In this document: one piece after another, positions 5,194-21,455 of the stretch
Numbering within the stretch: the stretch's first letter is position 1
How the letters are laid out: each line of letters opens with the position of its first letter
Source: Candidatus Aenigmatarchaeota archaeon
GTDB taxonomy: Archaea > Aenigmatarchaeota > Aenigmatarchaeia > QMZP01
Assembly (NCBI GenBank): GCA_017609225.1
Contig: JAFCEK010000001.1
Coordinates: forward strand, 1-49,982
Length of the DNA: 49,982 bases
Direction of reading: 5' to 3'
Notes under the pieces: generated by a model
The model's database searches: none
Told to the model about the DNA's origin: nothing
The model's input: only the letters and a program-made list of their open reading frames with translations
Translations under genes and position numbers: made by a program

Positions 5194-8100
5194 TCATACC
5201 CTTCTTTTTTTGTAAACCAGTGCAGCAGCTATTATCACAATTATTACAGCAACCACTGCCAGCGCTATGCCTGTTATATTAACAGGGGCTTCACAAACAA
5301 GCCCTGATTCATTGCAGCCATATGTGCATGTTTCAACTGTTTCCCAGCCAGTGCCATCACCAGAGCACTGCTGAAGTTCATTTCCAAGGCATCTCTTTAA
5401 TCCAGGACTGCAAACTGTTTGTGTTGGGGCAATTCCCTCCTCTGTGTTGCACACAAGCGCTGTTTCATTGCATCCATACTGGCATGTTTCTATGGTTTCC
5501 CATGCACTTCCATCTGACATGCACCGCTGAAGGTCATCGCCAGAGCACTGTATAGCATCTGGTGTGCAAACAGTCCCTGCGGCTGCTGCTTCTTCACCTG
5601 TTATTGCAAATACAGAGAATCCAGGCGTTGTTGCCTGATAATATACATAATCTTCAACACCTGTAGCCCTGCCTGTTATGGCACCCAGAATTCCTTCAAC
5701 AAACTCAATAACACCCTTAACTATGCATCCAAGCCCAAGGATTCCGCAGTCACCTGCTGTAACAGCCCCTGTCAGTGAAAGGCTTCCGCTGACCTTTGCT
5801 GTCTGAAGGGTTTGCCATGTGTTGTCCTTGTATCTCATCATTTTCACGCTGTTTTCATCTATACTGTTATCAGTCAGCCATGATTTCAAAACCTTGAATT
5901 TTATCTTCGCTGTTGTTATGTTTTCCTCTTTTATATTCAATGCTGTTATAGTCAGATAGGCAAAAACATTTCCGGGTGCATCTGTTACATTTGCTGGTTT
6001 TGCTGCTTCTTTTTTAACTGTCACAACCACATTCTCAGCATTGGTTTTTGGTGTTATTGTTATTTCCTGAACATACAGATCATCCTCTTTTGTAAATGCT
6101 GCAACACCTGATGTGCCTGCAGGTATTGTGCCTATGTTTACTGTTTCGGAAACGCTGGATGCACCGGCTGCACCACCACCAGGCGTGCCCCCAGTGTCCC
6201 TTCCACCCGTAGATGTTCCAGGCTCTCCGGATGCCCAGATGGAGAATTCACAATATGGAATCTGCCATGTGCATGTTGTGGAAGTTGTGCCTGTAAGGTT
6301 TGCCTCATCTGTTCTTTCAATGCAATTTTCCCCTGAATTATCGCACTGGTATAAATGGTCGCATGCTGTATCCCCTCTCGGAATTGTCAGTTTGCATATC
6401 TGCGGATGGAGATTGTTTATTATCTTGTCTCTTGTTTCTGATATCATGCCAACATATCCGATTGTATTTCCTGAGGAATCTGTTTCACTGTCACTGAACA
6501 GCAAATCACCGGCTTCCTGTATATCCCTGGTATCGCTGCTCAGGCCGGTTTTTGTCAGGGTAACATTAAGGAAAATGATCTCACCACCCTCTGTATAGTT
6601 CAGCTTTATATTGGCTCTCCTGCCGGATGTATAATTGGTTTTCATTCCTGCATTCGGGCCGCATACCTGTCCCTGCACATGTTCCCATGTTCCATCCTGG
6701 TCAAGGTCATAACTCACGGTCCAGCCATCAGGCACCTGAATCAGGGTTACAAAATTACAGTAGGGGCATCTTGTAGCACTTGCTGTTCTTATTGGGGTGC
6801 ATGCGCTTATGCTGCATCTGGATTCAGAGTCACATATTTTTATTTTGTAATAATAGGTAGTGTTTGGCTGCAGGTCATAGTCAAGCGAGTTTACGCCACC
6901 ATCATTATAGATCTCTGCTGTGTGCCAAAGCTTGTGCTCTCTTACATCATCACTCAAAATACCAATATCATATATTGTCCTGTTGTATGGCGTTGAGCTG
7001 CATGTTGAGTCATTATACCAGAAGAACACTGTACCATTTGTGGGCTTGCTTGTTTCATACATTATCAGTGCAGAATCAGTATATTCTTCAAATTTAACAC
7101 CCACTATTACAGGCATGGATGTATCAACATAGTCAGGCGAATTTACCCCAACACCTTCGCAGTTTGGAGCAAATTCACAATCCCAGTCATTGCAGTCAAC
7201 CATATCATCATCGTCATCATCCACGCCGTTAAGACAGTCCTCATACTTTACAAAGCCATGCATAAGTATGTCTTCAAACATTGCCGTGTCTACATCCTGC
7301 TCAAAAAACCCGTCTATTGAAAAGTCAATTGCCCCGGGTGTAACCCAGCCAGGGCCAACCATATCGGAAGGTGAACTTGCATTTTTGTTTTCACTCGCTG
7401 AAGCTGCGGACACCCTCATATCTTTTTCGGAATCATAAAGCAACGGGAATTTTTCAAGGTCAGATTTCTTTACAGCCAGCATTGGTCCATGTATTACAGA
7501 GCACATCTTCTCTTTCCATGCGCTTAAAGTTATATCAGCAGCCTCCCATCCCCCGCTTGCACCGCACTTGTAGGCATTGAATACCTCGGTGGCTTTGTTA
7601 AGACTGGAATTCCATGCAGATATGTACTTGAACATAAACTCATAACCCCCTGCTGATGAATTATGCCCAAGGGAACAACCTCCTGTGGTGCTCCCGTCTG
7701 TATCAAGGTATATGTAAAGCTTCACAGTCTGATTGCCGCTTCCGAACATACCAGGACCTGTTTTTTCATCCTTGCATATTCCTGCCTGGCTGAAGTCCCT
7801 GACATCTACACCAAACCCGAAAGCATCACCTATATCCTTCATTCCCAGTCCGCATATATCCACAGCACCATCAAGCCCGGAATCAGGCCCTACCAAATCA
7901 CAGCCATCAGGATCAAATGCAACAGGAACAGGCGGCCCCTCTTCCATGCCATAAAACATATCATGCATTCCGGGAGAGGTACAGAAGCCGGTCATCCATC
8001 TGCATCCAGTGCCGCATTCAGCCTCTGTTGCAGCTGAGAAACATGTTGGCTCGCACCAGCCGCCATCAGGAGCCCCTGCCTGGGTTGTCCAGTTGCAGTA

Positions 8101-11100
8101 GGGGCTTTCATCACATGCTGTCTGGTTTGAGCTTAAAGTGATGTTGGTATGACACTGTTCAAATACGTTTGTGCAGTATCCAAATTCGCTGCTCCACATG
8201 CACTGTGTCTGCTCATCACACATTGTCTGGTTCCAGTCATACTTCCAGCATTCCATGCTCCAGTCAGGCTCACAGAACGGATATGGTTCAGGCATCCACT
8301 GGCATGCCATGCCGATCAGCGTTTCATTTGTGCATGCTGACTCATTCCCGTCATACTTCCAGCATTCCATACCTGCCTGTGCACCTGTGCCCATTCCACC
8401 AATAACATCCCCGCCTGCAAACCCTTTTGGATTGCACCAGCCGGGTTCCTTCCATCTGCAGCCTTCGGTGGCATCACATGCATTCTGGTCGTTTGATAAT
8501 GATTCATTCCAGCAGTCAACTCCTCCAGCACTCCAGTCCTCCATGCACCAGCCGTCAGTCCATCTGCATCCTGCAACGCTGTTACAGCCGTTTTCACCAA
8601 GGCTCTGGTTATAGCATATAGGCTCGCAAAAACCAGAAGGGTCCCAGTAGCAGATATCAGAATGCTGACTGCATGCTGCCTGGTTATCATAATCCCAGCA
8701 AACCATTAACTGGTTATCGCACCAGCTGCCCCATGAATCAGTTCTCCATGTGCAGCCAGCTGCAGTGTTACATGAGACATTGTCATTATACTGCCAGCAG
8801 TTTGATGACCAGTCCACATCACACACCGCGCCCCAGTCATTTGTTTCCCATCTGCAGCCCTCAGTGAGATTACACGCAGTCCTGTTACTGTCATACAGCC
8901 AGCAGTTTTTTGGGGCAAACGCTGCAGGCTCGCACCAGCCGCCTTGGGTCTGGCACCATTCTGTGGTGGCTCCCTCACCTTCACAATATGTGTCATTTGT
9001 CCATATACAATCCGATGGGCTGGCTTCGCATGCTGTCTGTGTTGTCATGGAATAGCATTCTTCCCCGATGCTCCAGTCCTGCTCACACCACCCGCTTCCT
9101 GTTCCATTGGACCATTCACAGGTTGCATTCCTCGCAAGGCATGCTGACTCATTCCCGTCATATTTCCAGCAGTCAGCACCAGGGAAATCACACCAGCTTC
9201 CCCAAGGGTCTGTCATCCATGTGCAGTTGTTGGCAATGCAGTTTGCCTCGCCAAGGTCTTCCAGCTCTGGATTATACCAGCCAAAACAGTCACCTGAAAC
9301 AAATCCGCAAAACGAATCAGCAAAGCATTCAGGATCAGTGCAATCAATAAGGTTATCATTATCATTATCAATAGAATCCCAGCATATTTCGGCTGTTTCT
9401 CCTGCCTTTGAGCAGTAGCCATCATTTTCCCCGCCTGACCATTCACAGGAACCTGTTGCATTGATTGCGCTCCTGCCTTTGTTTACACAGTCATACTGCG
9501 TATAACATCTGTCACAGGAATCTTCACATGTTTTTTCACTGCTGTCAACACAATACCCGCCCATTTCACTATTGTTTTCCTGAATCCATTTGCATTTAAC
9601 ATTATTGAATTCGTACGCATGCTCACAGTAGCACTTGGGGGTATTGCACATGTCAAAGGTTGTTGCAGAGCCTGGTGCAGCACTGGAATAGCTTGAAGCA
9701 TTTGGGTTTCCATAATAGGTGCAGCTTCCGCAGTCTGTTGTGCAGTCTGAAGCTATTCCAGTTTTAAACTGTTTTTTCGCCCTGCATGTGCCAAACCCGT
9801 TGGGAGCATCAGCATCAGCAGTAAATACGCATTTTGGGTTTTGCAGGCAATACTCCCTGGCGCTGGCTGTTGAATTATGCGCAGTCCCGTCAAATTTGTA
9901 TTCACATGCATAGCATGCCTTCATACAGTTTCTTTCATCGCTTCCCTTTGGCTCACATCTTCCGGATGGCACAGAAAGGTTTCCCTCGCAGTAATTCTCC
10001 AGAACCCATTTGCATCCGGCAGCCAGGCAGTTCCTTTCATTATCCAGAATGGTGCAGCTTTGGGTTTCATTTACACCAAAAATATCCTCCCTGTTGGGTA
10101 TGCATGTTTTTGTGGAGTTATCCCATATGCAGGGCATATACCATGGGTCTCCGGCTATCTGGTCGCATAAGGTCCTTGCAGACTCGGAATCAGTTGTTTT
10201 CATAATAACATCCTCGCATGAGGTTACGCCCTCCGGGACAGGTTCCATTTCGTCATAACATGCATGACTTATCCTGTTTTCAGTACAGCTTCCAGCCTTC
10301 CATTCACAGCATGTAGCAAGCATGGATATGGTGTTGCAAAGCCTTGATTCATTAATCATAGTGCAGTTTATTCCGTGATCCTGTATCTGGTTTGCATTGG
10401 CATGGCTTGTATTAATTATGCATTCATTGCTGCTGTATTCACAGCCAAGAACATTATTGCAGTTTGTTGAATTTTTATCAAAAAGGTAACATCCGGGGTT
10501 CCATTCCTCAAAAATACTTTCCCCATAACCAAAATCAGAAGGGTCTATGCAGCTTCCCCCCAGAGCAGGATTGGTCCAGTCAGTATACTGCCAGAAGCAG
10601 TAGTATGTTTCCATACACTCCCTTTCTGTTGTTATATTGGAACATGACATATTGAAATTCGGATAACACCAGCCATCGTTGGGTCCTGCGCCCCAGCTCT
10701 CCCAGGCACAATTCAACCCATAGGCATTATTCACACAATCATTCTGGGTGCCTCCTCTCCAGCCATCCCATGTCCAGCACTGTACCTCTTCACACCAGCC
10801 CCAGCCTTCTGAAAGCCGCCATGTACAGCCTGCAGCTTCACACTCGCCGGCAGTACTATAATCCCAGCAGCCCTCCTCCATGCAGTATGATGAGCCGTCC
10901 CATGTGCAATTTAATCCATAGGGATTGTTTTCACATGCACTCTGGTTTGTAAAGTCAAAATGCCAGCATGAGTACTCTTCGCATGAATCATGAACATAAT
11001 AATTATCTACCCATGTGCAGTTCATACCTTCAGGATTGTTTTCACACACACTCTGATTTGTTCCTGAATAATCCCAGCAGCCCTTTTCATAGCAGTAAGA

Positions 11101-11646
11101 AGACTGGGAATTCCATGAGCAGCTCTGGTTTTTTGAACCCAGCCCATTATTGCATTCAGCTTCTGTGGAATAGCTCCAGCAGCCTGCTTCATAACAGCTT
11201 CCCCATCTGCATCCTGTAGCATTCCTGCATTCAGCCTCTGTTTCCAGCTCCCAGCAATTTATGTTGGGATTGTAGCCTGTGCATTCGTTTTCCCAGCTGC
11301 ATCTCAGATTATAGATGTTATTTTCACACGCACTCTGGTTTGTTCCGTCAAATGTATCGCAATGAGGCTGTTCGCACCAGCCCCAGTCCGTTCCTGTCTG
11401 CCATGTGCAGTTTTTTCCGGGAATATCAGCTGAGAGGCATGCTGTTTCATTCCAGAAATTCCAGCATCCCAACTCTTCGCACCATCCGCCCCATTCGTCT
11501 GTATGCCAGTTGCAGTTAATATCAGCTTCGCATTCTGTTTCTGTTGTATAACTCCAGCAGTCTGCAGCAGCAAACGGAGAAACAAATATAATTGAAAACA
11601 TAGTAATTGCTGCAACTGCCCAAAAAAGAACAAATCCAGCCCTCAT
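5194..11646 (-). CDS. Giant (2150 aa) Cys/Trp-rich, sequon-rich surface protein with a C-terminal TM anchor
   Basis: Uninterrupted 6.45-kb ORF. Sec signal MRAGFVLFWAVAAITMFSIIFVSPFAAA. Many CW-x-C-x-C-x-W-x-WC repeats. Two D-rich DxDxDNLIDCxDxxC motifs. An FN3-like segment. A PGF-pre-PGF-like domain ends in TTPGFSVFAITGE. There are two Cys modules, then the TM IALAVVAVIIVIIAAALVY and KKRRV. Confidence 0.9.
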   Translation of the reverse strand: MRAGFVLFWAVAAITMFSIIFVSPFAAADCWSYTTETECEADINCNWHTDEWGGWCEELGCWNFWNETACLSADIPGKNCTWQTGTDWGWCEQPHCDTFDGTNQSACENNIYNLRCSWENECTGYNPNINCWELETEAECRNATGCRWGSCYEAGCWSYSTEAECNNGLGSKNQSCSWNSQSSYCYEKGCWDYSGTNQSVCENNPEGMNCTWVDNYYVHDSCEEYSCWHFDFTNQSACENNPYGLNCTWDGSSYCMEEGCWDYSTAGECEAAGCTWRLSEGWGWCEEVQCWTWDGWRGGTQNDCVNNAYGLNCAWESWGAGPNDGWCYPNFNMSCSNITTERECMETYYCFWQYTDWTNPALGGSCIDPSDFGYGESIFEEWNPGCYLFDKNSTNCNNVLGCEYSSNECIINTSHANANQIQDHGINCTMINESRLCNTISMLATCCEWKAGSCTENRISHACYDEMEPVPEGVTSCEDVIMKTTDSESARTLCDQIAGDPWYMPCIWDNSTKTCIPNREDIFGVNETQSCTILDNERNCLAAGCKWVLENYCEGNLSVPSGRCEPKGSDERNCMKACYACEYKFDGTAHNSTASAREYCLQNPKCVFTADADAPNGFGTCRAKKQFKTGIASDCTTDCGSCTYYGNPNASSYSSAAPGSATTFDMCNTPKCYCEHAYEFNNVKCKWIQENNSEMGGYCVDSSEKTCEDSCDRCYTQYDCVNKGRSAINATGSCEWSGGENDGYCSKAGETAEICWDSIDNDNDNLIDCTDPECFADSFCGFVSGDCFGWYNPELEDLGEANCIANNCTWMTDPWGSWCDFPGADCWKYDGNESACLARNATCEWSNGTGSGWCEQDWSIGEECYSMTTQTACEASPSDCIWTNDTYCEGEGATTEWCQTQGGWCEPAAFAPKNCWLYDSNRTACNLTEGCRWETNDWGAVCDVDWSSNCWQYNDNVSCNTAAGCTWRTDSWGSWCDNQLMVCWDYDNQAACSQHSDICYWDPSGFCEPICYNQSLGENGCNSVAGCRWTDGWCMEDWSAGGVDCWNESLSNDQNACDATEGCRWKEPGWCNPKGFAGGDVIGGMGTGAQAGMECWKYDGNESACTNETLIGMACQWMPEPYPFCEPDWSMECWKYDWNQTMCDEQTQCMWSSEFGYCTNVFEQCHTNITLSSNQTACDESPYCNWTTQAGAPDGGWCEPTCFSAATEAECGTGCRWMTGFCTSPGMHDMFYGMEEGPPVPVAFDPDGCDLVGPDSGLDGAVDICGLGMKDIGDAFGFGVDVRDFSQAGICKDEKTGPGMFGSGNQTVKLYIYLDTDGSTTGGCSLGHNSSAGGYEFMFKYISAWNSSLNKATEVFNAYKCGASGGWEAADITLSAWKEKMCSVIHGPMLAVKKSDLEKFPLLYDSEKDMRVSAASASENKNASSPSDMVGPGWVTPGAIDFSIDGFFEQDVDTAMFEDILMHGFVKYEDCLNGVDDDDDDMVDCNDWDCEFAPNCEGVGVNSPDYVDTSMPVIVGVKFEEYTDSALIMYETSKPTNGTVFFWYNDSTCSSTPYNRTIYDIGILSDDVREHKLWHTAEIYNDGGVNSLDYDLQPNTTYYYKIKICDSESRCSISACTPIRTASATRCPYCNFVTLIQVPDGWTVSYDLDQDGTWEHVQGQVCGPNAGMKTNYTSGRRANIKLNYTEGGEIIFLNVTLTKTGLSSDTRDIQEAGDLLFSDSETDSSGNTIGYVGMISETRDKIINNLHPQICKLTIPRGDTACDHLYQCDNSGENCIERTDEANLTGTTSTTCTWQIPYCEFSIWASGEPGTSTGGRDTGGTPGGGAAGASSVSETVNIGTIPAGTSGVAAFTKEDDLYVQEITITPKTNAENVVVTVKKEAAKPANVTDAPGNVFAYLTITALNIKEENITTAKIKFKVLKSWLTDNSIDENSVKMMRYKDNTWQTLQTAKVSGSLSLTGAVTAGDCGILGLGCIVKGVIEFVEGILGAITGRATGVEDYVYYQATTPGFSVFAITGEEAAAAGTVCTPDAIQCSGDDLQRCMSDGSAWETIETCQYGCNETALVCNTEEGIAPTQTVCSPGLKRCLGNELQQCSGDGTGWETVETCTYGCNESGLVCEAPVNITGIALAVVAVIIVIIAAALVYKKRRV

Positions 11647-11705
11647 TATATATAATTAATATAGAGAATATAAATATTTAAACCAATTCAAACCAAATAT
11701 TATTC
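11647..11705. promoter_or_regulatory. Divergent AT-rich promoter region between the giant gene and the pilin-like operon
   Basis: 59 bp (tatatataattaatatagagaatataaatattta...) with several TATA-like boxes. It sits between two divergent start codons. Confidence 0.5.
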
Positions 11706-11933
11706 ATGAATAATTCTAAAGGGGCATTCCAGCTGAGTCTGAGCTTCATTATAATAATAGTTTTTGCTATTGTTCTTTTAACCCTTGCAGTAACATGGCT
11801 GCAGGGCGTGATAACCAGTGTAACAGGTCTTACAAATGATCTAACACAGCAGGCACAGAGCAAGCTTCAGAGCACGTTTTCGCAGACAAACAAAAACTTT
11901 GCTGTATGGCCCAGCAGCTATAAGATTGAGTGA
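11706..11933 (+). CDS. Pilin-like protein, N-terminal part (class III signal peptide), ending at an in-frame TGA
   Basis: MNNSKGA/FQLSLSFIIIIVFAIVLLTLAV. Same reading frame as 11949-12323. Confidence 0.6.
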   Translation: MNNSKGAFQLSLSFIIIIVFAIVLLTLAVTWLQGVITSVTGLTNDLTQQAQSKLQSTFSQTNKNFAVWPSSYKIE

Positions 11934-11948
11934 GGCAAGGCATTCAAG

Positions 11949-12323
11949 ATGTCTGCAGGAGTGAAAAACAATGCAGATGACGGGGCAAGCCATAAATTTG
12001 TATTGAATGTTGTCCCTGCAGCTGCAAGTGTAAGCATATTTAGCTCCTATGGCTGTTCAGGAACTGATATAAACAGCTGCGTTGCACTTGAAAATGATAT
12101 GGCAGGATGGGTAACATTTCCCGCAGGCGTGTTCACAGTGCAGATAAACAGTGTGGGATACAGGGATATAACAATAACAATACCAGATGATGCCAAAACC
12201 GGAACATACCAGTTTGATGCTGTCGTGTGCTGCACTGACTGTGCTGATTATGCTGGCTCCTGCACAACAGACAACCTTAACTGGGGCGGAAGCGCGCAGC
12301 CGATTCAGATAATTGTTGAATAA
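11949..12323 (+). CDS. Cys-containing extracellular-type domain without its own signal peptide (probable C-terminal part of 11706)
   Basis: In frame with 11706-11933, separated by TGA at 11931-11933 and 5 sense codons. There is no hydrophobic N-terminus. Confidence 0.55.
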   Translation: MSAGVKNNADDGASHKFVLNVVPAAASVSIFSSYGCSGTDINSCVALENDMAGWVTFPAGVFTVQINSVGYRDITITIPDDAKTGTYQFDAVVCCTDCADYAGSCTTDNLNWGGSAQPIQIIVE

Positions 12324-12370
12324 TTCTTTGAATATATTATAACAAAAACAATTATTATTTAGTGGGATGT

Positions 12371-12847
12371 ATGAATGTGGGAGCTGTGTTTGGCATAATA
12401 TTTGCCGCAATATTCATAGGATTTATCCTGGCATTTGGTACAGGAGCAATAACAGACATATTCTGTGTTGGCAATGTTGCCCAGACAAACAATGCAGTAA
12501 AGCAGCTTGAGATAGCTGTTGAAAACCTTTATGTAAGGGGATCCGAGGGCTCAAGCGATGAATATACACTAAACATACCTGACAATGCAAGGGTATGCTT
12601 TGTGAACAGCACAGATGCAAGCCCGAATGTCCTGGGCGGCTGGATGCCAGACCCTGATACAGCGCATATAGTGAAAAGAAAGATAGAAACACAAAACCTC
12701 AATGTATGGGTTTACTACAACTGCGGAAGCCAGGAGCCGGGTTACAGGATTGAGTATCTCTCTGTGCCCAGCAGCTTTTGCGCCAGTCCAGGAACATCGC
12801 TCTATCTGGAGAACAAGGGACTTTCGGTTGAGATATCAAAAATGTAA
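12371..12847 (+). CDS. N-terminally anchored secreted protein (operon member)
   Basis: MNVGAVFGIIFAAIFIGFILAF hydrophobic N-terminus. Tightly spaced in the co-directional operon. Confidence 0.6.
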   Translation: MNVGAVFGIIFAAIFIGFILAFGTGAITDIFCVGNVAQTNNAVKQLEIAVENLYVRGSEGSSDEYTLNIPDNARVCFVNSTDASPNVLGGWMPDPDTAHIVKRKIETQNLNVWVYYNCGSQEPGYRIEYLSVPSSFCASPGTSLYLENKGLSVEISKM

Positions 12848-12887
12848 TTCATCAGCGCATGATTCAGAGTTCACATAACTGATATGC

Positions 12888-14015
12888 ATGATAACATTAT
12901 TCCAGCTGTTCAAGATGATTTTTGGCATAATTGTGGCAGCCTTTATTCTCTATGCGCTTCTGAATTATTCAGGCAGCTATTCAGTATTTCAGGAAAGCGG
13001 CATAAAGGCAAAGATATTGAACAATTTCAGGGAAACAGCGCAGGATGTTTATTATTCCGGAAATGCCATAACCTATACAGACTTTTCTGCATATGATTTT
13101 TCTGGCACAAGATATGAACCGCTCAGAAACCCCCCTCTAATAGTGTCCGAAGCAGGGGAAATGGATATATGGTTTCCTCTTTTCTTTGTTATGGGAGAGA
13201 ATGTTTACATACACAGGGGCAGCCTTGATTACAAATTCTGGAAATTTTATTTTGTTGAGGCACTACCTGATATGAATATAATCTTTAATCCTGTTGACAA
13301 CACGCCTGATGCATGGGAAATAATGCAGGGCATAGTGGAGCTTATGCCTGATACAGCAGGAACAGAAAGGAAAATATATTTCGGACTTTGTGACGGGGAT
13401 TTTTATGAAACAAATGCATGCGGAGGCAAGCCATGCAGCAGAAATGACTTCCTTAATGCGCAGTCCACATTCTCTGCAACCCGGTTTGATAAATGCACAG
13501 CATCCCTGCCGCAGAACTCAAGGCTTGTTGTGATATCATCAGGCTGCACGCAGGGCTATGCAAACAGCAGCATATGCATAATACCATCCGGTTCAGGTGT
13601 TGGAAATTTCTATATCTCGGGTTCTCCTGAAAAATTTATATACAGGGATTCCCTTGACCTGCTGTCTGCAGTCCTTGGCGGGACAGAGCAGGATGCATTT
13701 GGCAAAACGCAGGGGGAAAAATTTTATGAATACAAAAACAGGATATTTGGGGAAAGATTAAAGATAGCATCAGACATAACCGCCAAAAGGTCGCTGCTTG
13801 TTACAGGAAGGCTTAACCCGGATACGGAAAGCACTGACTATTACTGCAGGTCAGTTTATATTTCCCTTGAGGGCATAACAAACCAGATAAAATCACTTGT
13901 TTCCAACAGGAATTACTACACGAATACAGCAGACCAGACAAACCTTAAGAATCTCCTTGAGCAGGCAAAGCTCAATTACCAGGAGCTTGTAAACAGGGGA
14001 TGTGAGTATCAATGA
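12888..14015 (+). CDS. N-terminally anchored secreted protein, 375 aa
   Basis: MITLFQLFKMIFGIIVAAFILYALL N-terminal helix. Its stop overlaps the next start (ATGA at 14012). Confidence 0.65.
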   Translation: MITLFQLFKMIFGIIVAAFILYALLNYSGSYSVFQESGIKAKILNNFRETAQDVYYSGNAITYTDFSAYDFSGTRYEPLRNPPLIVSEAGEMDIWFPLFFVMGENVYIHRGSLDYKFWKFYFVEALPDMNIIFNPVDNTPDAWEIMQGIVELMPDTAGTERKIYFGLCDGDFYETNACGGKPCSRNDFLNAQSTFSATRFDKCTASLPQNSRLVVISSGCTQGYANSSICIIPSGSGVGNFYISGSPEKFIYRDSLDLLSAVLGGTEQDAFGKTQGEKFYEYKNRIFGERLKIASDITAKRSLLVTGRLNPDTESTDYYCRSVYISLEGITNQIKSLVSNRNYYTNTADQTNLKNLLEQAKLNYQELVNRGCEYQ

Positions 14016-14536
14016 AAACAAAAAACATAAAGGGGCAGTATTCTGTTCTTGAATATGTGTTTCTTTCCCTGTTCATTATAGCAATCATAATAGGGCTCAT
14101 GTTTTTCCTTACCATATGGAGCAGCATACAGTTTGGAGCTGAAAGCATGAAAACAGAATGGGACAGGGCTTTATGGCTCGGCCAGTATGTTCAGAACATT
14201 CCCCTGCTGGTTAAGGAAACAGGCATGTTTGATGATGGCAAGCTGACAGCCCTTGCAAGCATGGGCCCATCAAAGGCATGCGAATATCTTGAAAGCCTTG
14301 CAGGCCCTGACTTCTTTATGGAACTCAGGATTCTGGATGGAAATGAAACCCAGATAAACTGCACATGGCAGAACTATCCTGACTGCAATTACTGGGAGTT
14401 CTGCAAAAATACAGGCAAAAAAAAGAAAAAATTCTACACGCTTCCTGTAAATGTTTACAGAAGGATAGGGTTCAAGCTTCAGGAAACAACCACAGGCAGA
14501 ACAGACATTGGAATATTAAAGGCAGGTGTGTACTGA
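14012..14536 (+). CDS. Pilin-like protein with a class III signal peptide
   Basis: MKTKNIKG/QYSVLEYVFLSLFIIAIIIGLMFFL: K-G-Q site followed by a hydrophobic helix. Confidence 0.7.
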   Translation: MKTKNIKGQYSVLEYVFLSLFIIAIIIGLMFFLTIWSSIQFGAESMKTEWDRALWLGQYVQNIPLLVKETGMFDDGKLTALASMGPSKACEYLESLAGPDFFMELRILDGNETQINCTWQNYPDCNYWEFCKNTGKKKKKFYTLPVNVYRRIGFKLQETTTGRTDIGILKAGVY

Positions 14537-14559
14537 GGGTAGCAGCGGAAGGAGATTGC

Positions 14560-15093
14560 ATGAATGCAGAAAAAAACCATGAAAAGGCGCAGGCAAGCAT
14601 AATAATGATAGTCCTTGTTCTCATAATATTTGCAGGGCTTGCCCTGTTTCTCCTCTCCTTTGCAAAAACAATGAGCCAGGAGGATTACATGAGCACCTAT
14701 GTTAACAGTCTGCTGCTTTCAATAATGAGAACAGACACAGGATACCTGGATTCAGACTGCAGGCTTGTGTCAGATGCAATATCATGCAGCTTTTTCTCAA
14801 CAGGGCTTGTGTGCAGGGATTCGGAAATAACATGCGACAGCCTGGCATACAGAAAGGTGGAGGAATACATAAACAGAACCATAAAAAAAGGCTTCAGGTA
14901 TTTCTTTTCTGTAACACCGGAAGGATTTGTTGCAAGGTCAAGCTCGGGGGAGCCAATAAAATTTGAAATCGGGGATTCAAAGCTGAAAAGCGAGAAAACA
15001 GAAAAATGGAGCGCAAACCAGAGAATAATGAAGGCAACAGCAACAGGCCAGTATTCCCTGAAGGTTCAGCTTGTTATAGCTGTGAAAAAATAA
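14560..15093 (+). CDS. Pilin-like protein with a class III signal peptide
   Basis: MNAEKNHEKA/QASIIMIVLVLIIFAGLALFLL. Confidence 0.65.
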   Translation: MNAEKNHEKAQASIIMIVLVLIIFAGLALFLLSFAKTMSQEDYMSTYVNSLLLSIMRTDTGYLDSDCRLVSDAISCSFFSTGLVCRDSEITCDSLAYRKVEEYINRTIKKGFRYFFSVTPEGFVARSSSGEPIKFEIGDSKLKSEKTEKWSANQRIMKATATGQYSLKVQLVIAVKK

Positions 15094-15169
15094 CAGCATG
15101 CCCAGCTCTGCGAGCCCATGATTTCAAATAATTTCCAAATTTATATACATATAATGTTAATTAATTATT

Positions 15170-17020
15170 ATGAATATTAGGAAGGGGCAGGCAGAGCTCA
15201 TAATCCTGGTTGGCATAATAGTTGTTTTTGTGGCTGTTGTTTTCTATACATACCAGTCAAGCCTGTTCACGGCACCTGTAACACCTGAAACAGAAAACAT
15301 AAGGAACACTATAGAGAACTTCATAAGGGAGGGAGCAAGAGACACGCTCAGAACAATGTATGATTACGGCGGATACCTGGAGGCGCAGCCCGGCTCCGTG
15401 ATTTTTCTGGGAAAGGAAATTCCATACTGGCAGAAAAGCGGACAGGTATCATACCCTGATGTGAGGCAAAATCTTGTACAGGGCGTAACAAGCTATCTGA
15501 ATGAAAACAAGGATTCTCTTGAGGCAATGCTTGCAGGAAAGAATGTAACCCTTGGAACCGCCTATGTAAGCGCGGTTATCCTGGGAAGCCAGATAACCCT
15601 TACAGTAAACATGCCAACCCAGTACATGGAACAGAGCCTGCAGCAGCCGTATGTTGTTACAGTTCCATCCAAACTCGGCGAGATATATGAGTTTTCAAAG
15701 GGATTTGCAGCGCAGGAGGCCACAAGCAGATATTTTGAATATTTCACTGTGTCCAGCATGATGATAAGCCCGTTTGAAGGCGGTGTGCAGGCAGTGCCTG
15801 TTGTGGTTTTGCTTACGCAATGCGGGGAAATGGTTTTCAAAACATGGTTTGATATAAAACCCGGAATGGAGGATGTAATAAAAACAACGCTTGCTCATAC
15901 CTATATGCCAGGCAAGTCACCGCTTGGCGTAATGCACAAAACAAGCTTCCCGAAATATATGATACCTGAAATAGGAAACAAGGCATATGAGGATTTGAAT
16001 ATAAGCTTCCATCTGCCTGATGATTTTGAATTAACGCAGAGCAATTTCCAGTTTACCCCAAATCCGATAAGTGCATTTACAGAGCCTGTGCCAATGACAA
16101 GCCAGTGCTATTCAAACCCTGTTTATGTCAAGTATGCAGTAAACTACCCTGTTATTGTAAGGGTAAAGGACAGCCTTACAGGAGACAGCTTCCATTTCGC
16201 GATTGATGTTTCCATTTATGACAATGCGCCAAGGCCATGGACATCTGATACAACAGGATACACACCAGAGGTGCAGCAGGAGATATGCGAGAACCAGCTC
16301 TGCACAGCAAGCATAACAGTCACAGACAGCAGCGGTGCACCTGTTTCTGGAGCAGAAGCAAGCTTTATGGGATGCCCAATCGGAAGAACAGACAGTAATG
16401 GTATAGTGACAGCTTCCATACCATGCGGTATAGGGCCTCTTGTAATATACAAAAACAGATACCAGACATTCGAGCAGATGATGTCCTCAGACCATCTTGA
16501 AGGCACCACGATATCTATTGAAAAGATACCTGTGGTAAATCTGAATTTTTATGAAGTTAATATAGTCAACAACACGCTGACAGACGAGTACTGGATAAGG
16601 GTTGGAGATGTGAATATGATAGATGATATAACAGATGAAACAATTCATATAATATTTTATGACCTTTCAACAGGCGAAACCTATGAGAGAATATACGAGA
16701 ACAGGCAGGCAACAATAAGGCATATACCCCCGGGTTCATATGCTGTTACAGCCATGCTTTCAAGCCCTGATATGGCAATCATGTATGGCGCTGTGCTAAC
16801 CACACTTACAATAACAGAAGATATGGACGGAGGCACACTTTATGTTTATCTTCCTTATAATTTTGAATTCAAGGACATAACAGACAGCGTTGAAAAAACA
16901 GTTGCATCCAGAACATTAACAGCAGTGCTGGAGGAATGCGGCATAGGACCAATATCAAGCGAACAGTACGATATAAATAATTTACCATGTAAAAAAGCAT
17001 ATAGCGAGATTGTAATCTAA
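15170..17020 (+). CDS. Large (616 aa) pilin-like protein with a carboxypeptidase-regulatory-like beta-sandwich
   Basis: MNIRKG/QAELIILVGIIVVFVAVVF. Internal ITVTDSSGAPVSGAEASFMGCPIGRTDSNGIVTASIPCG resembles the CarboxypepD_reg fold. Confidence 0.7.
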   Translation: MNIRKGQAELIILVGIIVVFVAVVFYTYQSSLFTAPVTPETENIRNTIENFIREGARDTLRTMYDYGGYLEAQPGSVIFLGKEIPYWQKSGQVSYPDVRQNLVQGVTSYLNENKDSLEAMLAGKNVTLGTAYVSAVILGSQITLTVNMPTQYMEQSLQQPYVVTVPSKLGEIYEFSKGFAAQEATSRYFEYFTVSSMMISPFEGGVQAVPVVVLLTQCGEMVFKTWFDIKPGMEDVIKTTLAHTYMPGKSPLGVMHKTSFPKYMIPEIGNKAYEDLNISFHLPDDFELTQSNFQFTPNPISAFTEPVPMTSQCYSNPVYVKYAVNYPVIVRVKDSLTGDSFHFAIDVSIYDNAPRPWTSDTTGYTPEVQQEICENQLCTASITVTDSSGAPVSGAEASFMGCPIGRTDSNGIVTASIPCGIGPLVIYKNRYQTFEQMMSSDHLEGTTISIEKIPVVNLNFYEVNIVNNTLTDEYWIRVGDVNMIDDITDETIHIIFYDLSTGETYERIYENRQATIRHIPPGSYAVTAMLSSPDMAIMYGAVLTTLTITEDMDGGTLYVYLPYNFEFKDITDSVEKTVASRTLTAVLEECGIGPISSEQYDINNLPCKKAYSEIVI

Positions 17021-17031
17021 AAGATGAGAAT

Positions 17032-20000
17032 ATGGATATAAAGCACCTTGCACTGGAAATCTTTGCAGTAGCGGTATCCTATTTATTGTTAATGTTACCT
17101 GTAACATCAGCCACAAGCGTTAATATATTTTTCAATGGCATACAGCAGGACACAACAGATATATCTCCCGGAAATCTTGTAAGCAAAGAGATAAACGTGT
17201 ATCATGATGCTGATGATATAACATGGACAAACATAAAGGTTCTTGTAACCCTGAGCAGCGCAAGCCTTTCCCACAGCATAAAGAAAATATATTTATACAA
17301 ATGCAAAACACTGTCGCCATCCGCATGCATCCAGGGAACGCCCCAGGTATTTGACAGCTGGATTGATACAGAGCTTTCATGGAATGATATATCCCAGAGT
17401 GAGGGCGTGGGGGTTTATCCCCAAACAGCAAACCTGATGTTCCTTGTTAAGCTTGAAGACTTCAATGGCAAGGCAAGCTGGGTTGGCTTCTGGGATACCA
17501 TAAGAAGAATAGACTACAACATATTCAATCATTATAGTTATCCCCTCAATGAAATTGAATTTCATGCAAAATCCCTGGATATGATAGAACCCATAAAGAC
17601 ATACATAGAAAATTACCAGATGATTCCCTTCAACTGGGCAGAGAAGGTTGTATTCAGGATGGCAAACATACTCTATGGTGTTGGTGCAAACGAGCAGGAA
17701 ATTGAACAGACACCACCGTTTTTTGATGGGGCCCAGACAAGTACAAACCAGGTAACAAGCATAGGAAAGGACTATTACTTTGTGCTTTCAAACATCACAA
17801 GCGGCATAACCAATCCTGTAACCATGCGTTTGAATCCATCATTCACATGCGGCAATGGCCAATGCGAAACAGACTTGGGAGAAACCACATCAACATGCTG
17901 CTATGACTGCGGCTGCGCAGCAGATTTCTATTGCGATATGAGTGATGAACAGAATCCGGAAACAGGCGCCTGCAGGTCGCTAACAGAAATCACAGTAGAT
18001 GTAACAAGCACATCAATGGCTGACATAACTGACTGCAGCCAGAACCAGCAGTTAACTATAACAGCGCAGATAAATAATGCACCTTCCAACCTTCCCGCAA
18101 CGCTTACAGGATATATAAAACTGAATGAAACCCAGTATAATGTTCCATGCCAGTCAAGCATCCCAGGAATATATGAATGCACTGTAAATCTGCAGCCAGA
18201 GGTAAGATGCGGTGACGGAAGCTATGTTCTTGGTCCAAATGAGATTAATTTCACCATACCATTTAATGACGGACCTGATATGATAACTGAAACAATAGGA
18301 ACAGAATTTTCTGACATAACAGTAAACTACAACTGCGAATGTGCAGGCGGATATTATTGTGATTCCGGTCTGAGAATGTGCAAGCCGGAGGGGCAGATAG
18401 CGCTTGTTATAATAAATGTTACCTCATATATGGATAATTACAATCCTGCAGGGGATAACATAGGAATATATGCAACAATAAACAATCCCCCATCTGACAT
18501 GAGTATTACAGGAAGTTCATATGTTCTGGGAAACATAACCTTTGACGGAAGTTCTTCGCCTGGTTCCTCAGGAAGCGTGACATGTGATGAAAGCAACAAC
18601 ATATATTACTGCAGCATACCGCTGTTTATACAAAACTATGACCACTCAAGGCAGTATATAGTGAACGGAAACAGCCTCTCATTTACAATAAGCTTTAGTG
18701 ATGGCGGCAACTCCATAACAAAAACGCTTACAACAGGGTTTTCCGATATTATAGTGCCTTCGTACAGATGCGGTGATACTACATGCAATGCCGAAGAGAA
18801 TTCAGATAACTGCTGCCTGGACTGCGGATGTCCCAATCCCGATGATTACTGTGACAGGGTTTACGGCTGCGTGAACGAAAACAACATAACCATGGTTATC
18901 GATACAATAACACCTGAAAACCTGACTGACTGCAAGATACCCCATGTGCTTAACATAAAAGCAAGAATACTCAACGCGCCAAGCGACCTTGTTCTCAATT
19001 ATTATTATTATCTGCAGAATGATGAAATAAAGGGCTGGAACCTGTTATGCATGGAATCACCGCCAGGATCAAATATGGGAATTTTTGAATGCCAGCTTGC
19101 TGTTCCCCCCATTGATGATTGTTCCCTGCCTTATTACACGCTTGGCAATAATAAGCTGAGGTTTTCAGTTTCATTTCCAAACGGCCTCACGCAGGTTCTG
19201 ACAAAAACGCTTGAGGCTGAGTTTCAGGATATAAACATAGTTCCAACATACCATTGCGGTGACAATATATGCGAATATGACCTAAACGAGAGCGGCTCTG
19301 TGTGCTGTATTGACTGCATATGCGGCTCAGACCCGGATTTTGGATCTGAATATTACTGCGACTATGACCCCCAGCTGAATCCAAACGGCACATGCCTCCC
19401 AAAAAACAACATAACACTTGTTATAGACAAGCCGATGGCAGTTGTGCATTTCACAAGCTGCGAGAAGGCAAACACAGTAAACATAAAGGCGCATGTTGAA
19501 AACCAGCCTTCAGGCATGATTGTTGAAAATATTTTCGGCATTTTCAACGGGGAAACAGCTGAATATATCTCATGCACACCTGAAATGGGAATAATTACAA
19601 CACCAAACTATACAGGACCTGTTGAATGGAACTCATACAACTGCAGTCTTATTGTACCTGCAGAGCAGCAATGTTCACAGGGCCAGACATACACCTATAG
19701 CAATAACTCACTCTCATTCTTCATAAGCTATACAAACGGTTTGGGAAAAAGGGAAACACAGATACTTACACAGCCATATCCTGATGTGACAATAACCCAG
19801 AATATAAGAACACTTTATGACATAATGCAGGATGCAATCAGCAGGATGAAAGGAAAGCTTCAGGAAACCATAACACTTATGGAGGACCTCATCAAAATGT
19901 GGGAGGACTGTTTGGACATGCTGATTGCATTAACCATAGTAATGGTTATAGGAACAATTGTGGCAGGCGTTATTGGAGCCAAGACCGGAGGGACAGAAGG

Positions 20001-21426
20001 ATTCTCTGAAACAGTAAAGGCATCAAGTGCAGCCAGCACTGCAGTCATAACAACACTCATGGGCATATGCGAAATAATGGGTAAGGTAATACAGCTCAGA
20101 ATAAATATGAAGGAAACAGAGATTGACTTTATAAGAATGGAAACATGCATCGAGGTTTACCAGCACCAGATGGACACGGGAATGTGTGACAGGAATGCTG
20201 AGGGCTGCTTTAATGCAATAGCAGGCTGCATAGAGTTCGGGGAAATTAATAGTTTCATAAACAGCGCACAGAGCATAGGCAGGGATATAAACTCCCAGGT
20301 ACAGCGGATTGGAAACGCATGGAGAAATGTGGGAGAAACAGTTGAAGGCCTTTCATTCGGAGCCCAGGGAGAAGGTGCAATAAGCTTCACATGCTCTCCT
20401 GGAGGCAGCTACTGTTGCGGCTATGTACCAAGAACAACAACAGGCGCAGGGCAGAACCAGTACCAGCTTCAGACAGTCAGCCTGACTATGGCCAGTCTGA
20501 AAAACTGTGAGAGGCCAAGCATAAAGATATACTCAAAGAAGGACTGGCTGGCAAGCTCCGATGTATGCAAATCAGCAAGCGGCAGGGCAGATGATGAGGC
20601 AGAAACAGCAGCAAACCAGATATGCATTGAAGCTGGTACAGGGTGCAATGTTGACAGGAAGACCATAAGCAGGCATGACAGGGTTTTTGAATGCAAGTAT
20701 CTGCTAAAGGAAGGCGACAACGGATACGATGAAAATGTAAAGATGCAGTGCGAGGCAAAATCAGCATATGCGAATCAGGCAGGAAAAGAAAAAGCCAATA
20801 AAATATGTGAAAGCGAGGGCGGTTCAGGCTGCAAGGCAAAGGCAACCTTCTGGGGTGAGAATGAATTTAAATGTGTATCCTCAGAAACAGGATTCAAGGA
20901 AATAACATCTTCTTACAGGGGAACCACAAAGGAGCTGTTCGGACCGCAGATGTTTGGCCAGTCAGACCAGGATTCGGGAAATGATGAATATGCCTTTGTT
21001 CTGGCATGTGATGGCGTGGACACAGACACATCCCAAACAGTGAAGTACTGCCTGGGAACACCGCAGGCAGGATGCGGAACAGGCTCTCCATGCGCTGCTG
21101 TCCGCCCGGAATGGGAAGACATGGCTCCAAAATCACCTGCAGGCACAATAACACCAACAGCAACACCTGTTGATACCCCAACAACATTCAGCGTCCAAAC
21201 AGACGCATCAGTTGTTTCTTTTGTATGGCTTATAAACGGCAGAGAATTGCGTAGAGGCAGAACATATGATGATGATAATTATGGCTACAGGGTATTGGAT
21301 ATAACCAGCGATGGAAGATTGATAATTGAATTCACAAAACCAAACAGATACCCGCTTGAATCGCGCATAACAGATGACAGCGGAAACATTGGCTACATAA
21401 CAGAATGGATAGATGTTTCACCCTGA
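17032..21426 (+). CDS. Giant (1464 aa) modular Cys-rich surface protein with an internal hydrophobic segment
   Basis: Sec signal (LLLMLPVTSA). Four tandem modules of roughly 150 aa, three of which start CG-x-x-x-CE...CC-x-DC-x-C while the second starts with the variant CECAGGYYC. TM-like LIALTIVMVIGTIVAGVIGA at 19921-19980. Cys-rich C-terminal region and a PKD-like end. Confidence 0.85.
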   Translation: MDIKHLALEIFAVAVSYLLLMLPVTSATSVNIFFNGIQQDTTDISPGNLVSKEINVYHDADDITWTNIKVLVTLSSASLSHSIKKIYLYKCKTLSPSACIQGTPQVFDSWIDTELSWNDISQSEGVGVYPQTANLMFLVKLEDFNGKASWVGFWDTIRRIDYNIFNHYSYPLNEIEFHAKSLDMIEPIKTYIENYQMIPFNWAEKVVFRMANILYGVGANEQEIEQTPPFFDGAQTSTNQVTSIGKDYYFVLSNITSGITNPVTMRLNPSFTCGNGQCETDLGETTSTCCYDCGCAADFYCDMSDEQNPETGACRSLTEITVDVTSTSMADITDCSQNQQLTITAQINNAPSNLPATLTGYIKLNETQYNVPCQSSIPGIYECTVNLQPEVRCGDGSYVLGPNEINFTIPFNDGPDMITETIGTEFSDITVNYNCECAGGYYCDSGLRMCKPEGQIALVIINVTSYMDNYNPAGDNIGIYATINNPPSDMSITGSSYVLGNITFDGSSSPGSSGSVTCDESNNIYYCSIPLFIQNYDHSRQYIVNGNSLSFTISFSDGGNSITKTLTTGFSDIIVPSYRCGDTTCNAEENSDNCCLDCGCPNPDDYCDRVYGCVNENNITMVIDTITPENLTDCKIPHVLNIKARILNAPSDLVLNYYYYLQNDEIKGWNLLCMESPPGSNMGIFECQLAVPPIDDCSLPYYTLGNNKLRFSVSFPNGLTQVLTKTLEAEFQDINIVPTYHCGDNICEYDLNESGSVCCIDCICGSDPDFGSEYYCDYDPQLNPNGTCLPKNNITLVIDKPMAVVHFTSCEKANTVNIKAHVENQPSGMIVENIFGIFNGETAEYISCTPEMGIITTPNYTGPVEWNSYNCSLIVPAEQQCSQGQTYTYSNNSLSFFISYTNGLGKRETQILTQPYPDVTITQNIRTLYDIMQDAISRMKGKLQETITLMEDLIKMWEDCLDMLIALTIVMVIGTIVAGVIGAKTGGTEGFSETVKASSAASTAVITTLMGICEIMGKVIQLRINMKETEIDFIRMETCIEVYQHQMDTGMCDRNAEGCFNAIAGCIEFGEINSFINSAQSIGRDINSQVQRIGNAWRNVGETVEGLSFGAQGEGAISFTCSPGGSYCCGYVPRTTTGAGQNQYQLQTVSLTMASLKNCERPSIKIYSKKDWLASSDVCKSASGRADDEAETAANQICIEAGTGCNVDRKTISRHDRVFECKYLLKEGDNGYDENVKMQCEAKSAYANQAGKEKANKICESEGGSGCKAKATFWGENEFKCVSSETGFKEITSSYRGTTKELFGPQMFGQSDQDSGNDEYAFVLACDGVDTDTSQTVKYCLGTPQAGCGTGSPCAAVRPEWEDMAPKSPAGTITPTATPVDTPTTFSVQTDASVVSFVWLINGRELRRGRTYDDDNYGYRVLDITSDGRLIIEFTKPNRYPLESRITDDSGNIGYITEWIDVSP

Positions 21427-21455
21427 TTTTTATTTCCTTCTGCCTAATTATTTAT

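Follow-up and report, generated by a model that had tools for sequence, protein, structure and literature searches.

A giant cysteine-rich protein family of DPANN Archaea built from a small four-cysteine repeat: a candidate envelope glycoprotein

Introduction

Here we describe a giant cysteine-rich protein of 2150 residues, encoded on a 49,982-nucleotide stretch of contig JAFCEK010000001.1 from a Candidatus Aenigmatarchaeota archaeon (this whole stretch is called the window below), and the conserved, single-copy family of DPANN Archaea to which it belongs. Its predicted outer part is an array of roughly 35 small modules, most recognizably the four-cysteine element that we call the CW unit (C1-W-x-[YF]…C2…C3-x-W…C4-[ED]). 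With a probability of about 0.55, we favor the reading that this protein is the principal envelope (S-layer-like) glycoprotein of Woesearchaeales/Pacearchaeales-type DPANN and of some Aenigmatarchaeota, doubling as their contact surface.

Woesearchaeales, Pacearchaeales and related DPANN are abundant, and hardly any of them has been brought into culture; a literature search found no account of the envelope composition or host contact of DPANN of this type. The family is a concrete candidate for a DPANN envelope or contact protein, being single-copy in at least 72 species-level genomes, with near-invariant cysteines and conserved glycosylation sequons. Archaeal membrane-anchored surface glycoproteins with tandem modules are of an already known kind. 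New here are the CW unit, recognized as a separate small domain that had not been described and for which a two-disulfide helix-helix-hairpin fold is predicted; the conserved array of about 35 CW modules in a family spanning several DPANN orders; and the presence of the CW unit in mucin-like proteins of choanoflagellates, which raises the question of inter-domain transfer versus convergence.

Results and Discussion

A conserved single-copy family

The reading frame at 5194..11646 on the minus strand starts with ATG and runs through 2150 uninterrupted codons, as expected from an earlier, sequence-only reading of the window (the original prediction) that took it for one real open reading frame (ORF). 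A homology search returned 166 matches, and the 120 at the head of the ranking are proteins of 1,197-3,167 residues (most 1,700-2,500, a few being truncated on short contigs) from metagenome-assembled genomes (MAGs) of Woesearchaeota, Pacearchaeota, 'Nanoarchaeota' and Aenigmarchaeota; none of the 120 carries a precomputed Pfam domain, and the family's current database labels are 'hypothetical' or 'PGF-pre-PGF domain-containing protein'. All begin with a hydrophobic stretch and are alike in composition (Cys 7-8%, Trp about 4%). They contain between 25 and 100 sequons, in most cases 40-80, and from 6 to 23 CW units can be detected in each; almost all end in a transmembrane helix and a basic tail. 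When GTDB species representatives were scanned, at least 72 DPANN genomes each yielded a single locus, the closed 1.16-Mb genome of GW2011_AR15 among them; in a genome of 1 Mb the gene takes up about 0.5%. This DPANN-specific family is also present in many TPA_asm MAG records that bear the title 'uncultured Methanosarcinales archaeon' (loci L004, L012, L035, L049, L050, L052, L053, L056, L060, L062, L066 and L068), and these titles are probably taxonomic mislabels.

In a full-length alignment of 71 sequences (70 homologues and the protein itself), residues 29-1805 are colinear, with 44-55% identity and an occupancy of at least 0.94, and 150 of the 170 cysteines are at least 90% conserved. Within the array, Trp is 75% conserved, against 38% for residues other than Cys and Trp. 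With the closest homologue, identity reaches 62% across 88% of the length, and the two loci have gene neighbors in common. To judge from this alignment, the CW array is ancient and positionally fixed, and is not rapidly expanding.

Composition sets the protein apart: it contains 7.9% Cys, 4.2% Trp and 0.9% His, and the total number of cysteines is even. Sequons of the form N-x-S/T, which had been noticed to occur by the dozen, number 55, a 2.4-fold excess over the 22.9 +/- 4.1 expected from 1000 shuffles, and their positions are conserved: sequon columns are common to 51% of homologues on average, many to more than 85%, as against 4.5% for Asn outside sequons. Since sequon columns are conserved so far beyond other Asn residues, the putative glycosylation sites are maintained by selection.

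Architecture of the gene and protein

The features of the gene and its product are listed below from the upstream end, with residues counted from the start codon and the basis of each assignment in brackets.

5194..11646, minus strand: whole coding sequence of the predicted giant Cys-rich surface glycoprotein, 2150 residues plus stop (ORF list; DPANN homologues)
11647..11705, minus strand: divergent AT-rich intergenic spacer, 59 bp, with a TTTAAATA-type box (direct sequence reading)
11563..11646, minus strand: putative N-terminal signal peptide, residues 1-28, MRAGFVLFWAVAAITMFSIIFVSPFAAA (sequence; comparable hydrophobic N-terminus in all full-length homologues)
10660..11562, minus strand: CW block A, residues 29-329, nine four-Cys units C-W-x-[YF]..C..C-x-W..C-[ED] (units found by hidden Markov model, HMM; AlphaFold2 predicted local distance difference test score, pLDDT, 80-92)
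9403..10659, minus strand: middle Cys-rich, Trp-poor region, residues 330-748, degenerate or variant disulfide modules (weak HMM matches; AlphaFold2 topology)
9286..9402, minus strand: acidic Cys module 1, residues 749-787, CWDSIDNDNDNLIDCTDPEC..., teneurin C-rich/thrombospondin-T3-like, putatively Ca2+-binding (alignment with Protein Data Bank, PDB, entry 7plp)
7975..9285, minus strand: CW block B, residues 788-1224, about 13 four-Cys units (HMM units; block-A HMM; AlphaFold2 model)
9139..9174, minus strand: near-identical patch, copy 1, encoding CWKYDGNESAC, residues 826-836 (34/36 nt as in copy 2)
8332..8367, minus strand: near-identical patch, copy 2, encoding CWKYDGNESAC, residues 1095-1105 (34/36 nt as in copy 1)
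7252..7974, minus strand: conserved beta-rich globular region 1, residues 1225-1465 (AlphaFold2 pLDDT mostly 80-95; 54% family identity)
7147..7251, minus strand: acidic Cys module 2, residues 1466-1500, CLNGVDDDDDDMVDCNDWDC (second NF033662 stretch; weak 7plp match)
6772..7146, minus strand: FN3-like beta-sandwich, residues 1501-1625 (model; Foldseek FN3 matches)
6232..6771, minus strand: conserved beta-rich region 3, residues 1626-1805, with the terminal conserved motif ...C.W.IPYCEFS (AlphaFold2 model; 55% family identity)
6097..6231, minus strand: Gly/Ser/Thr-rich linker, residues 1806-1850 (sequence; pLDDT below 50; 20% family identity)
5602..6096, minus strand: PGF-pre-PGF domain, residues 1851-2015, terminating in TTPGFSVFAITGE (TIGR04213)
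5293..5568, minus strand: two membrane-proximal 6-Cys modules, residues 2027-2066 and 2079-2118, C..C..C..G.W..C..GC..C (regular expression)
5197..5280, minus strand: C-terminal transmembrane helix and cytoplasmic KKRRV, residues 2123-2150 (sequence; like tail in nearly all homologues)

The TTTAAATA-type box lies about 30-37 nt 5' of the ATG and is a putative archaeal TATA element or promoter. Across 6001-12000 of the window the GC content is 0.44-0.49, compared with about 0.42 in the flanking DNA, and on the plus strand the GC skew is strongly negative (-0.14 to -0.17); this anomaly is due to the many TGC, TGG and GGN codons on the minus strand rather than to foreign origin.

The CW repeat array

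An iterated HMM detects 22-23 units of at least 13 bits, each of 25-40 residues, in two blocks (residues 29-329 and 795-1224), with Cys spacings of 8-10, 5-9 and 8-12. No unit of at least 13 bits arose in any of 200 composition-preserving shuffles, the best of which reached 9.3 bits. As a control free of circularity, block A alone was used to build an HMM, which scores seven units of block B at 10 bits or higher, whereas shuffled sequences reach no more than 6.4 bits. More than 15 CW repeats had originally been predicted between 7975 and 11560, and the unit count bears this out; the strict pattern proposed at that time, on the other hand, matches only five units, and the modules continue through the Trp-poor middle region. 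In that region (residues 330-748; 50% identity and an occupancy of 0.96 across the family) the unit topology recurs in the AlphaFold2 model with variant Cys patterns, so that about 35 mini-modules would fill the first 1,225 or so residues.

The cysteines of block A are invariant or nearly so among 88 homologues, and sequons sit at fixed positions of the unit, N-x-S/T-x-C2 and N-C3-T. CxxC and CxxCH motifs are absent from the CW units, and no CW unit was found in the other ORFs of the window.

The CW repeats are diverged at the DNA level (about 60-80%). A recent internal duplication or gene conversion had been proposed from two near-identical stretches, and that similarity is real: the two 36-nt patches differ at two positions, and 10 of their 11 codons are identical, which given the same peptide has a P value of about 0.004. 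The likeness is confined to 33-36 nt, however, with unrelated flanks, in an array that is itself ancient and positionally conserved. It thus looks like a short conversion tract, and is not compatible with a recent duplication of whole units.

Predicted fold of the unit

AlphaFold2 models were built from 38-sequence alignments in two pieces. The model of residues 25-790 has a mean pLDDT of 77.4 (80-92 in the repeats) and a predicted template modelling score (pTM) of 0.35; that of residues 786-1830 has a pLDDT of 77.2 and a pTM of 0.57. When DSSP assignments are mapped on the sequence, every unit reads alike as helix, helix and beta-hairpin: a short helix is made by C1-W-x-Y and the next one contains C2, and the hairpin has C3-x-W in strand 1 and [W]-C4-[ED] in strand 2. 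The structure prediction suggested at the outset for the repeats therefore gives one consistent topology per unit. Across 949 unit-by-homologue cells there is almost no loss of Cys, and the only double losses are of C1 together with C3 (seven homologues, one unit), a pattern weakly consistent with disulfide pairing of C1 with C3 and C2 with C4.

The CW unit as a mobile domain

The CW unit had not been recognized as a named domain, and wider searching agrees. No Pfam or NCBIfam family covers the repeat when the whole protein is scanned; a Pfam census of 22 isolated units gave only sub-threshold matches to Paramecium_SA (4 of 22, best E 0.014) and Trefoil noise; the unit profile matched no chain among PDB sequences at E<=10; and the model of the repeat half had no significant Foldseek match, the best E value being 4.7 in the PDB and 0.38 in BFVD, though Foldseek is insensitive to 30-residue modules. 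A transmembrane protein of Pithovirus sibericum (BFVD W5S4L6) aligns locally with one CW unit over 30 residues (root-mean-square deviation 1.0 Å, probability 0.92, E 2.5); this non-significant match is the only unit-sized structural echo found in the PDB and BFVD. The profile check that had been suggested, run against 1.84 billion representative proteins, likewise led to no described family, and no description of the family or of the repeat was found in the literature. The original prediction had named two ways in which it could fail, membership of the repeat in a known domain family and a chimeric assembly; instead, there are more than 100 colinear homologues and no matching family in the databases tested.

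The exhaustive search of the 1.84 billion proteins gave 76 matches at E<=1e-3, most of them members or fragments of the family. The others include proteins of choanoflagellates in EukProt transcriptomes: Savillea parva EP00038_P027267 and P006508 (P0123 and P0156 in our numbering) and Stephanoeca diplocostata EP00041_P037619 (P0150). These, matched by the profile with E 3.6e-26, are mucin-like type I membrane proteins with six to nine units, for example 'SCFSFSDQAACEAAPSCQWSTSYGFGFCD', of the form C-[FW]-x-[FI]-x-[DT]-Q-x-x-C-E-x(3-5)-C-x-W-x(3-5)-G-x-G-[FY]-C-[DE]. Unlike in DPANN, where the units are contiguous, Thr/Ser-rich mucin linkers separate them; the Trp is mostly Phe, the cytoplasmic tails are of eukaryotic type, and nothing else is in common. 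A 1068-residue protein from a JGI metagenome (P0164) carries CW-type units ('CWDYDDNQTACEAVGGCFW…WCDP') after an N-terminal NosD/right-handed beta-helix domain, and small secreted proteins of metagenomic or bacterial origin with CW-type units complete the set (P0180, P0172, P0191 and P0184, the last a 91-residue protein of an Oligoflexia MAG, MDR3606906.1). A profile of the non-family units aligns from end to end with that of the DPANN units (hhalign probability 97.4%, E 1.6e-11). A non-family profile of two units, used in a word-indexed search, retrieved the Oligoflexia protein only.

Given this occurrence in unrelated architectures and the hhalign match, the CW unit behaves, as far as sequence comparison goes, as an autonomous, mobile and rare small domain, described by none of the libraries tested. 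We propose that it be defined by four cysteines, of which C1 is followed by an aromatic and C4 by an acidic residue, by C3-x-W, by a length of 25-40 residues, by a predicted helix-helix-hairpin and by detectability in unrelated architectures. Being absent from Pfam, NCBIfam and the PDB, it would merit a family definition. A bolder proposal, which we offer tentatively and regard as doubtful, is that the unit is a new autonomous extracellular fold (a helix-helix-hairpin with two disulfides, a Trp core and glycans), homologous between DPANN and choanoflagellates through ancient sharing or inter-domain transfer, from which a new type of archaeal envelope protein of about 35 knotted mini-domains, instead of immunoglobulin (Ig)-like sandwiches, is built.

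The choanoflagellate protein P0123 also gives a marginal match to the Pfam C-terminal domain of trypanosome variant surface glycoproteins (VSG; PF10659), with 26.3 bits against a gathering score of 21.4. This is a lead and not a classification; a PDB sequence search with P0123 returned nothing relevant and hence did not establish a connection with those VSG C-terminal domains that have been solved.

Acidic modules, conserved core and variable stalk

Two acidic motifs of metal-binding type had been pointed out downstream of the repeats, and both hold up, the first more firmly. Module 1 matches the teneurin-4 C-rich domain (7plp) with an E value of 8.4e-6 and contains, framed by Cys, the Ca-ligand motif D-x-D-N-D-x-D-x-L-x-D-C-x-D-P-x-C (residues 749-787); it is conserved in 85 of the 120 homologues, and the AlphaFold2 pLDDT is low there. 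Module 2 (residues ~1468-1495) matches 7plp weakly (E 0.12) and is conserved in 101 of the 120. A match to NCBIfam NF033662, in two stretches, lies below the curated cut-off (32.8 vs 41 bits). In teneurin-4, the acidic residues of the matching motif coordinate three Ca2+ ions (PMC9058538), and the modules here are putatively of a Ca2+-binding type as well. With the teneurin C-rich domain, thrombospondin type-3-like Ca2+ sites and NF033662, module 1 shares C-x-D-S-x-D-N-D-x-D-x-L-[IV]-D-C-x-D-P-[ED]-C; the differences are that there are just two isolated copies, within another protein, and that the aligned stretch has five instead of six Cys, without the CC doublet.

Residues 1225-1805 are beta-rich and form the best-conserved portion of the protein. 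An FN3-like segment had been proposed at about 6780-7140, and it is the fold rather than Pfam that substantiates it: the model has a seven-strand block at residues ~1514-1620, and Foldseek matches single FN3 domains (3n1g_D, 3d1m_D and 2e3v_B) with probability 1.0 and a template modelling score (TMt) of 0.51-0.55, the aligned query residues not being reported, while a Pfam scan of the whole protein gave no fn3 match at E<=1. With the model of the C-terminal half, Foldseek returns only generic FN3/Ig beta-sandwich arrays, which provide no functional clue.

Closer to the membrane, the predicted PGF-pre-PGF-like domain (about 5590-6140) is verified by NCBIfam TIGR04213 (E 1.3e-26; residues 1852-1953 and a second stretch), its score of 93.4 bits exceeding the cut-off of 28. 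The plain anchor of a transmembrane helix and KKRRV, without a PGF-CTERM signal, also proved correct: an NCBIfam scan at E<=1 gave no match to the PGF-CTERM model, and the sole PGF motif (residues 2006-2008) lies about 115 residues N-terminal of the transmembrane helix, with two Cys modules in between. A PGF-pre-PGF domain is carried by only 24 of the 120 homologues and the 6-Cys module by three, and the stalk as a whole (residues 1851-2122) has an occupancy of about 0.3 in the family. The original layout of the downstream domains is thus confirmed domain by domain, with the correction that its PGF-pre-PGF and 6-Cys part is a lineage-variable add-on outside the conserved core.

A neighboring ORF at 21405-23006 on the plus strand (533 residues) ends with CTPGKKQCYGMLLQECRQDGSGWETLETCDYGCDNTLHAC, a transmembrane helix and RKK, the CTPGKKQCYGMLLQECRQDGSGWETLETCDYGCDNTLHAC part being of the same type as the 6-Cys module of the giant protein. 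It seems that surface proteins of the source genome have this module in common as a stalk element that can be swapped between them.

Proposed function

In the model that we propose, the single-copy product would be exported through Sec and anchored in the membrane as a type I cell-surface glycoprotein, with aa 1-28 as its probable signal peptide. Innermost would be the transmembrane helix with its five-residue basic tail, followed outward by the lineage-variable stalk (two 6-Cys modules, the PGF-pre-PGF domain and the Gly/Ser/Thr-rich linker) and then by the conserved beta-sandwich block, one sandwich of which is FN3-like, carrying a putative Ca2+-binding acidic module. Outermost would stand the array of about 1,200 residues, roughly 35 modules of 25-40 residues, each a helix, a helix and a beta-hairpin, with probably two disulfides, most likely C1-C3 and C2-C4, around conserved Trp residues; a second, teneurin-like module of Ca2+-binding type would break up the array. 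N-glycans are predicted at conserved positions, typically N-x-S/T-x-C2 or N-C3-T. Such a disulfide-stapled, glycan-shielded array would most likely form a stiff, protease-resistant outer coat, either an S-layer-like canopy or a fibrillar layer, and this coat would be the surface at which tiny, probably episymbiotic cells meet their surroundings. From sequence we infer each of these properties, that is, export, disulfide bonding, N-glycosylation, Ca2+ binding and the coat or contact role.

By its sequence, the family shows the traits of the S-layer class: it would be secreted and membrane-anchored, with conserved sequons that would be glycosylated, and it has one locus per genome in 72 genomes. 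With archaeal PGF-pre-PGF proteins (TIGR04213) and S-layer glycoproteins such as that of Haloferax volcanii it shares the signal peptide, sequons, beta-sandwiches, a C-terminal anchor and the PGF-pre-PGF domain. It departs from these in having a transmembrane helix and basic tail in place of a PGF-CTERM/archaeosortase signal, and its conserved core (the CW array and residues 1225-1805) is without counterpart in characterized S-layer proteins.

Protist surface coats, namely Giardia variant-specific surface proteins, Paramecium surface antigens (PF01508) and the trypanosome VSG C-terminal domain, offer a second comparison. Like the Giardia proteins, the archaeal protein would be of type I, with many small disulfide modules, a transmembrane anchor and a very short basic tail. 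In contrast to these coats, the archaeal protein has no CxxC, gives no significant match to PF01508 or PF10659, and is conserved as a single copy instead of belonging to a variable multigene family. Eukaryotic EGF-like, laminin-type EGF and TNFR/furin-like repeats, which are tandem disulfide modules of 30-40 residues forming glycosylated extracellular stalks, are analogous in function only; the CW units differ from EGF-like, TNFR and furin-like repeats in the number and spacing of Cys (four Cys in a helix-helix-hairpin), and neither sequence searches nor Foldseek matched them.

Several points weigh against a role as the major envelope protein. That role is read from sequence and predicted structure; Pfam, NCBIfam and Foldseek show no similarity to characterized S-layer families, and no literature on the protein was found. 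The disulfide connectivity depends on a single co-loss event, and extracellular disulfides in presumably anaerobic organisms are themselves a prediction. The pTM of 0.35 leaves the geometry between modules undefined, and about 35 modules in extended form would far exceed the typical length of an S-layer canopy. Finally, the check for the oligosaccharyltransferase AglB was confined to the 50-kb window.

The main rival, possible though in our judgment rather unlikely, is that the protein is a dedicated adhesin with which an episymbiotic DPANN cell attaches to a host or substrate. The CW array would then be a long, stiff spacer presenting binding surfaces, which might act like a lectin, by means of exposed aromatic residues, or depend on Ca2+, by means of the acidic modules. 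The architecture does resemble that of giant adhesins and eukaryotic adhesion receptors, with FN3/Ig-type beta-sandwiches, teneurin-like Ca modules and Foldseek matches that include the Ca-binding adhesin SiiE and receptor ectodomains; small Trp-rich disulfide domains often bind carbohydrate; and the CW unit recurs in choanoflagellate mucin-like surface proteins and, in P0164, beside a NosD-like beta-helix. The gene is also divergent to a type-IV-pilin-like cluster, both here and in the closest relative, and lies near T2SSE/T2SSF in a distant homologue, yet this synteny is not family-wide. Host-specific adhesins are usually variable in their tip and copy number, whereas here the distal array is positionally conserved, the number of units nearly constant, the length tightly held at about 1,850-2,100 residues and the locus single in each genome scanned. 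Because conservation marks the distal and central parts and variation the stalk, in a single-copy protein of constrained length, we favor a coat over an adhesin.

The remaining alternatives call the chemistry or the gene itself into question. That the cysteines bind metals (Zn, Fe-S or chalcophile) instead of forming disulfides, in an extracellular metal- or mineral-binding or redox protein, would suit a Cys content of 7.9% in an organism of probably anoxic habitats, and small dark archaeal domains rich in Cys have been read as metal-binding in a recent survey (PMC13607799). We think this very improbable: the signal peptide and dozens of conserved sequons place the protein outside the cytoplasm, the Cys spacing and Trp core are typical of disulfide-stabilized extracellular modules, and the counterparts in choanoflagellates are ectodomains of mucin type. 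In particular, motifs led us to reject a metal cluster or zinc knuckle, as the units lack CxxC knuckles and His makes up only 0.9%, so that there are no haem or zinc-finger signatures. Scarcely credible is an assembly artefact, a chimera or a decaying repetitive pseudogene, suspicions to which a compositionally unusual, repetitive 6.4-kb gene on a metagenomic contig is naturally exposed, the more so as the exact protein was not found in a gene-position index. The frame is intact, the repeat DNA is too diverged for assembly collapse, and the closest homologue shares gene neighbors; the 70 full-length homologues, colinear over residues 29-1805 with near-invariant Cys, exclude an assembly chimera.

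Genomic context

The remainder of the window is largely archaeal housekeeping, encoding PCNA, AspRS, Hef/ERCC4, CTP synthase, SerRS, proteasome α and β, SBDS, exosome subunits, aCPSF1/FttA and Nre. Neither AglB nor an exosortase/archaeosortase was found among the ORFs of the 50-kb window.

Divergent to the gene, a cluster on the plus strand (11706-23006) encodes unannotated proteins, several with class-III (type IV pilin-like) N-termini and two of them large Cys-containing surface proteins. In the part at 11706-17020 the pilin-like N-termini read MNNSKGAFQLSLSFIIIIVF, MKTKNIKGQYSVLEYVFLSLF, ..KAQASIIMIVLVLIIF and MNIRKGQAELIILVGIIVV, and no ORF there has a Pfam match. The ORF at 17032-21426 (plus strand, 1464 residues, no Pfam match) has four or five CG[DN]GxCE...CCxDCGC Cys modules that take turns with beta-rich segments, and probably encodes a further surface protein; the homologue at L002, the locus of the closest relative, has 2521 residues with PKD and CARDB domains.

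The pilin-like cluster and AspRS are syntenic at L002, and the distant homologous locus L001 lies near T2SSE/T2SSF genes. When 17 neighbors from the window were compared by tblastn with 74 loci, the cluster and AspRS were common only to the closest relative. With synteny so limited and the linkage not conserved across the 74 loci, an operon link with type IV filaments was rejected as a family trait.

Towards the far end of the window, an ORF at 48566-49402 (plus strand, 278 residues) encodes a staphylococcal-nuclease domain together with a lamin-tail domain (LTD); the product may be a nuclease, secreted or at the surface, such as one would expect in DPANN cells that scavenge nucleotides.

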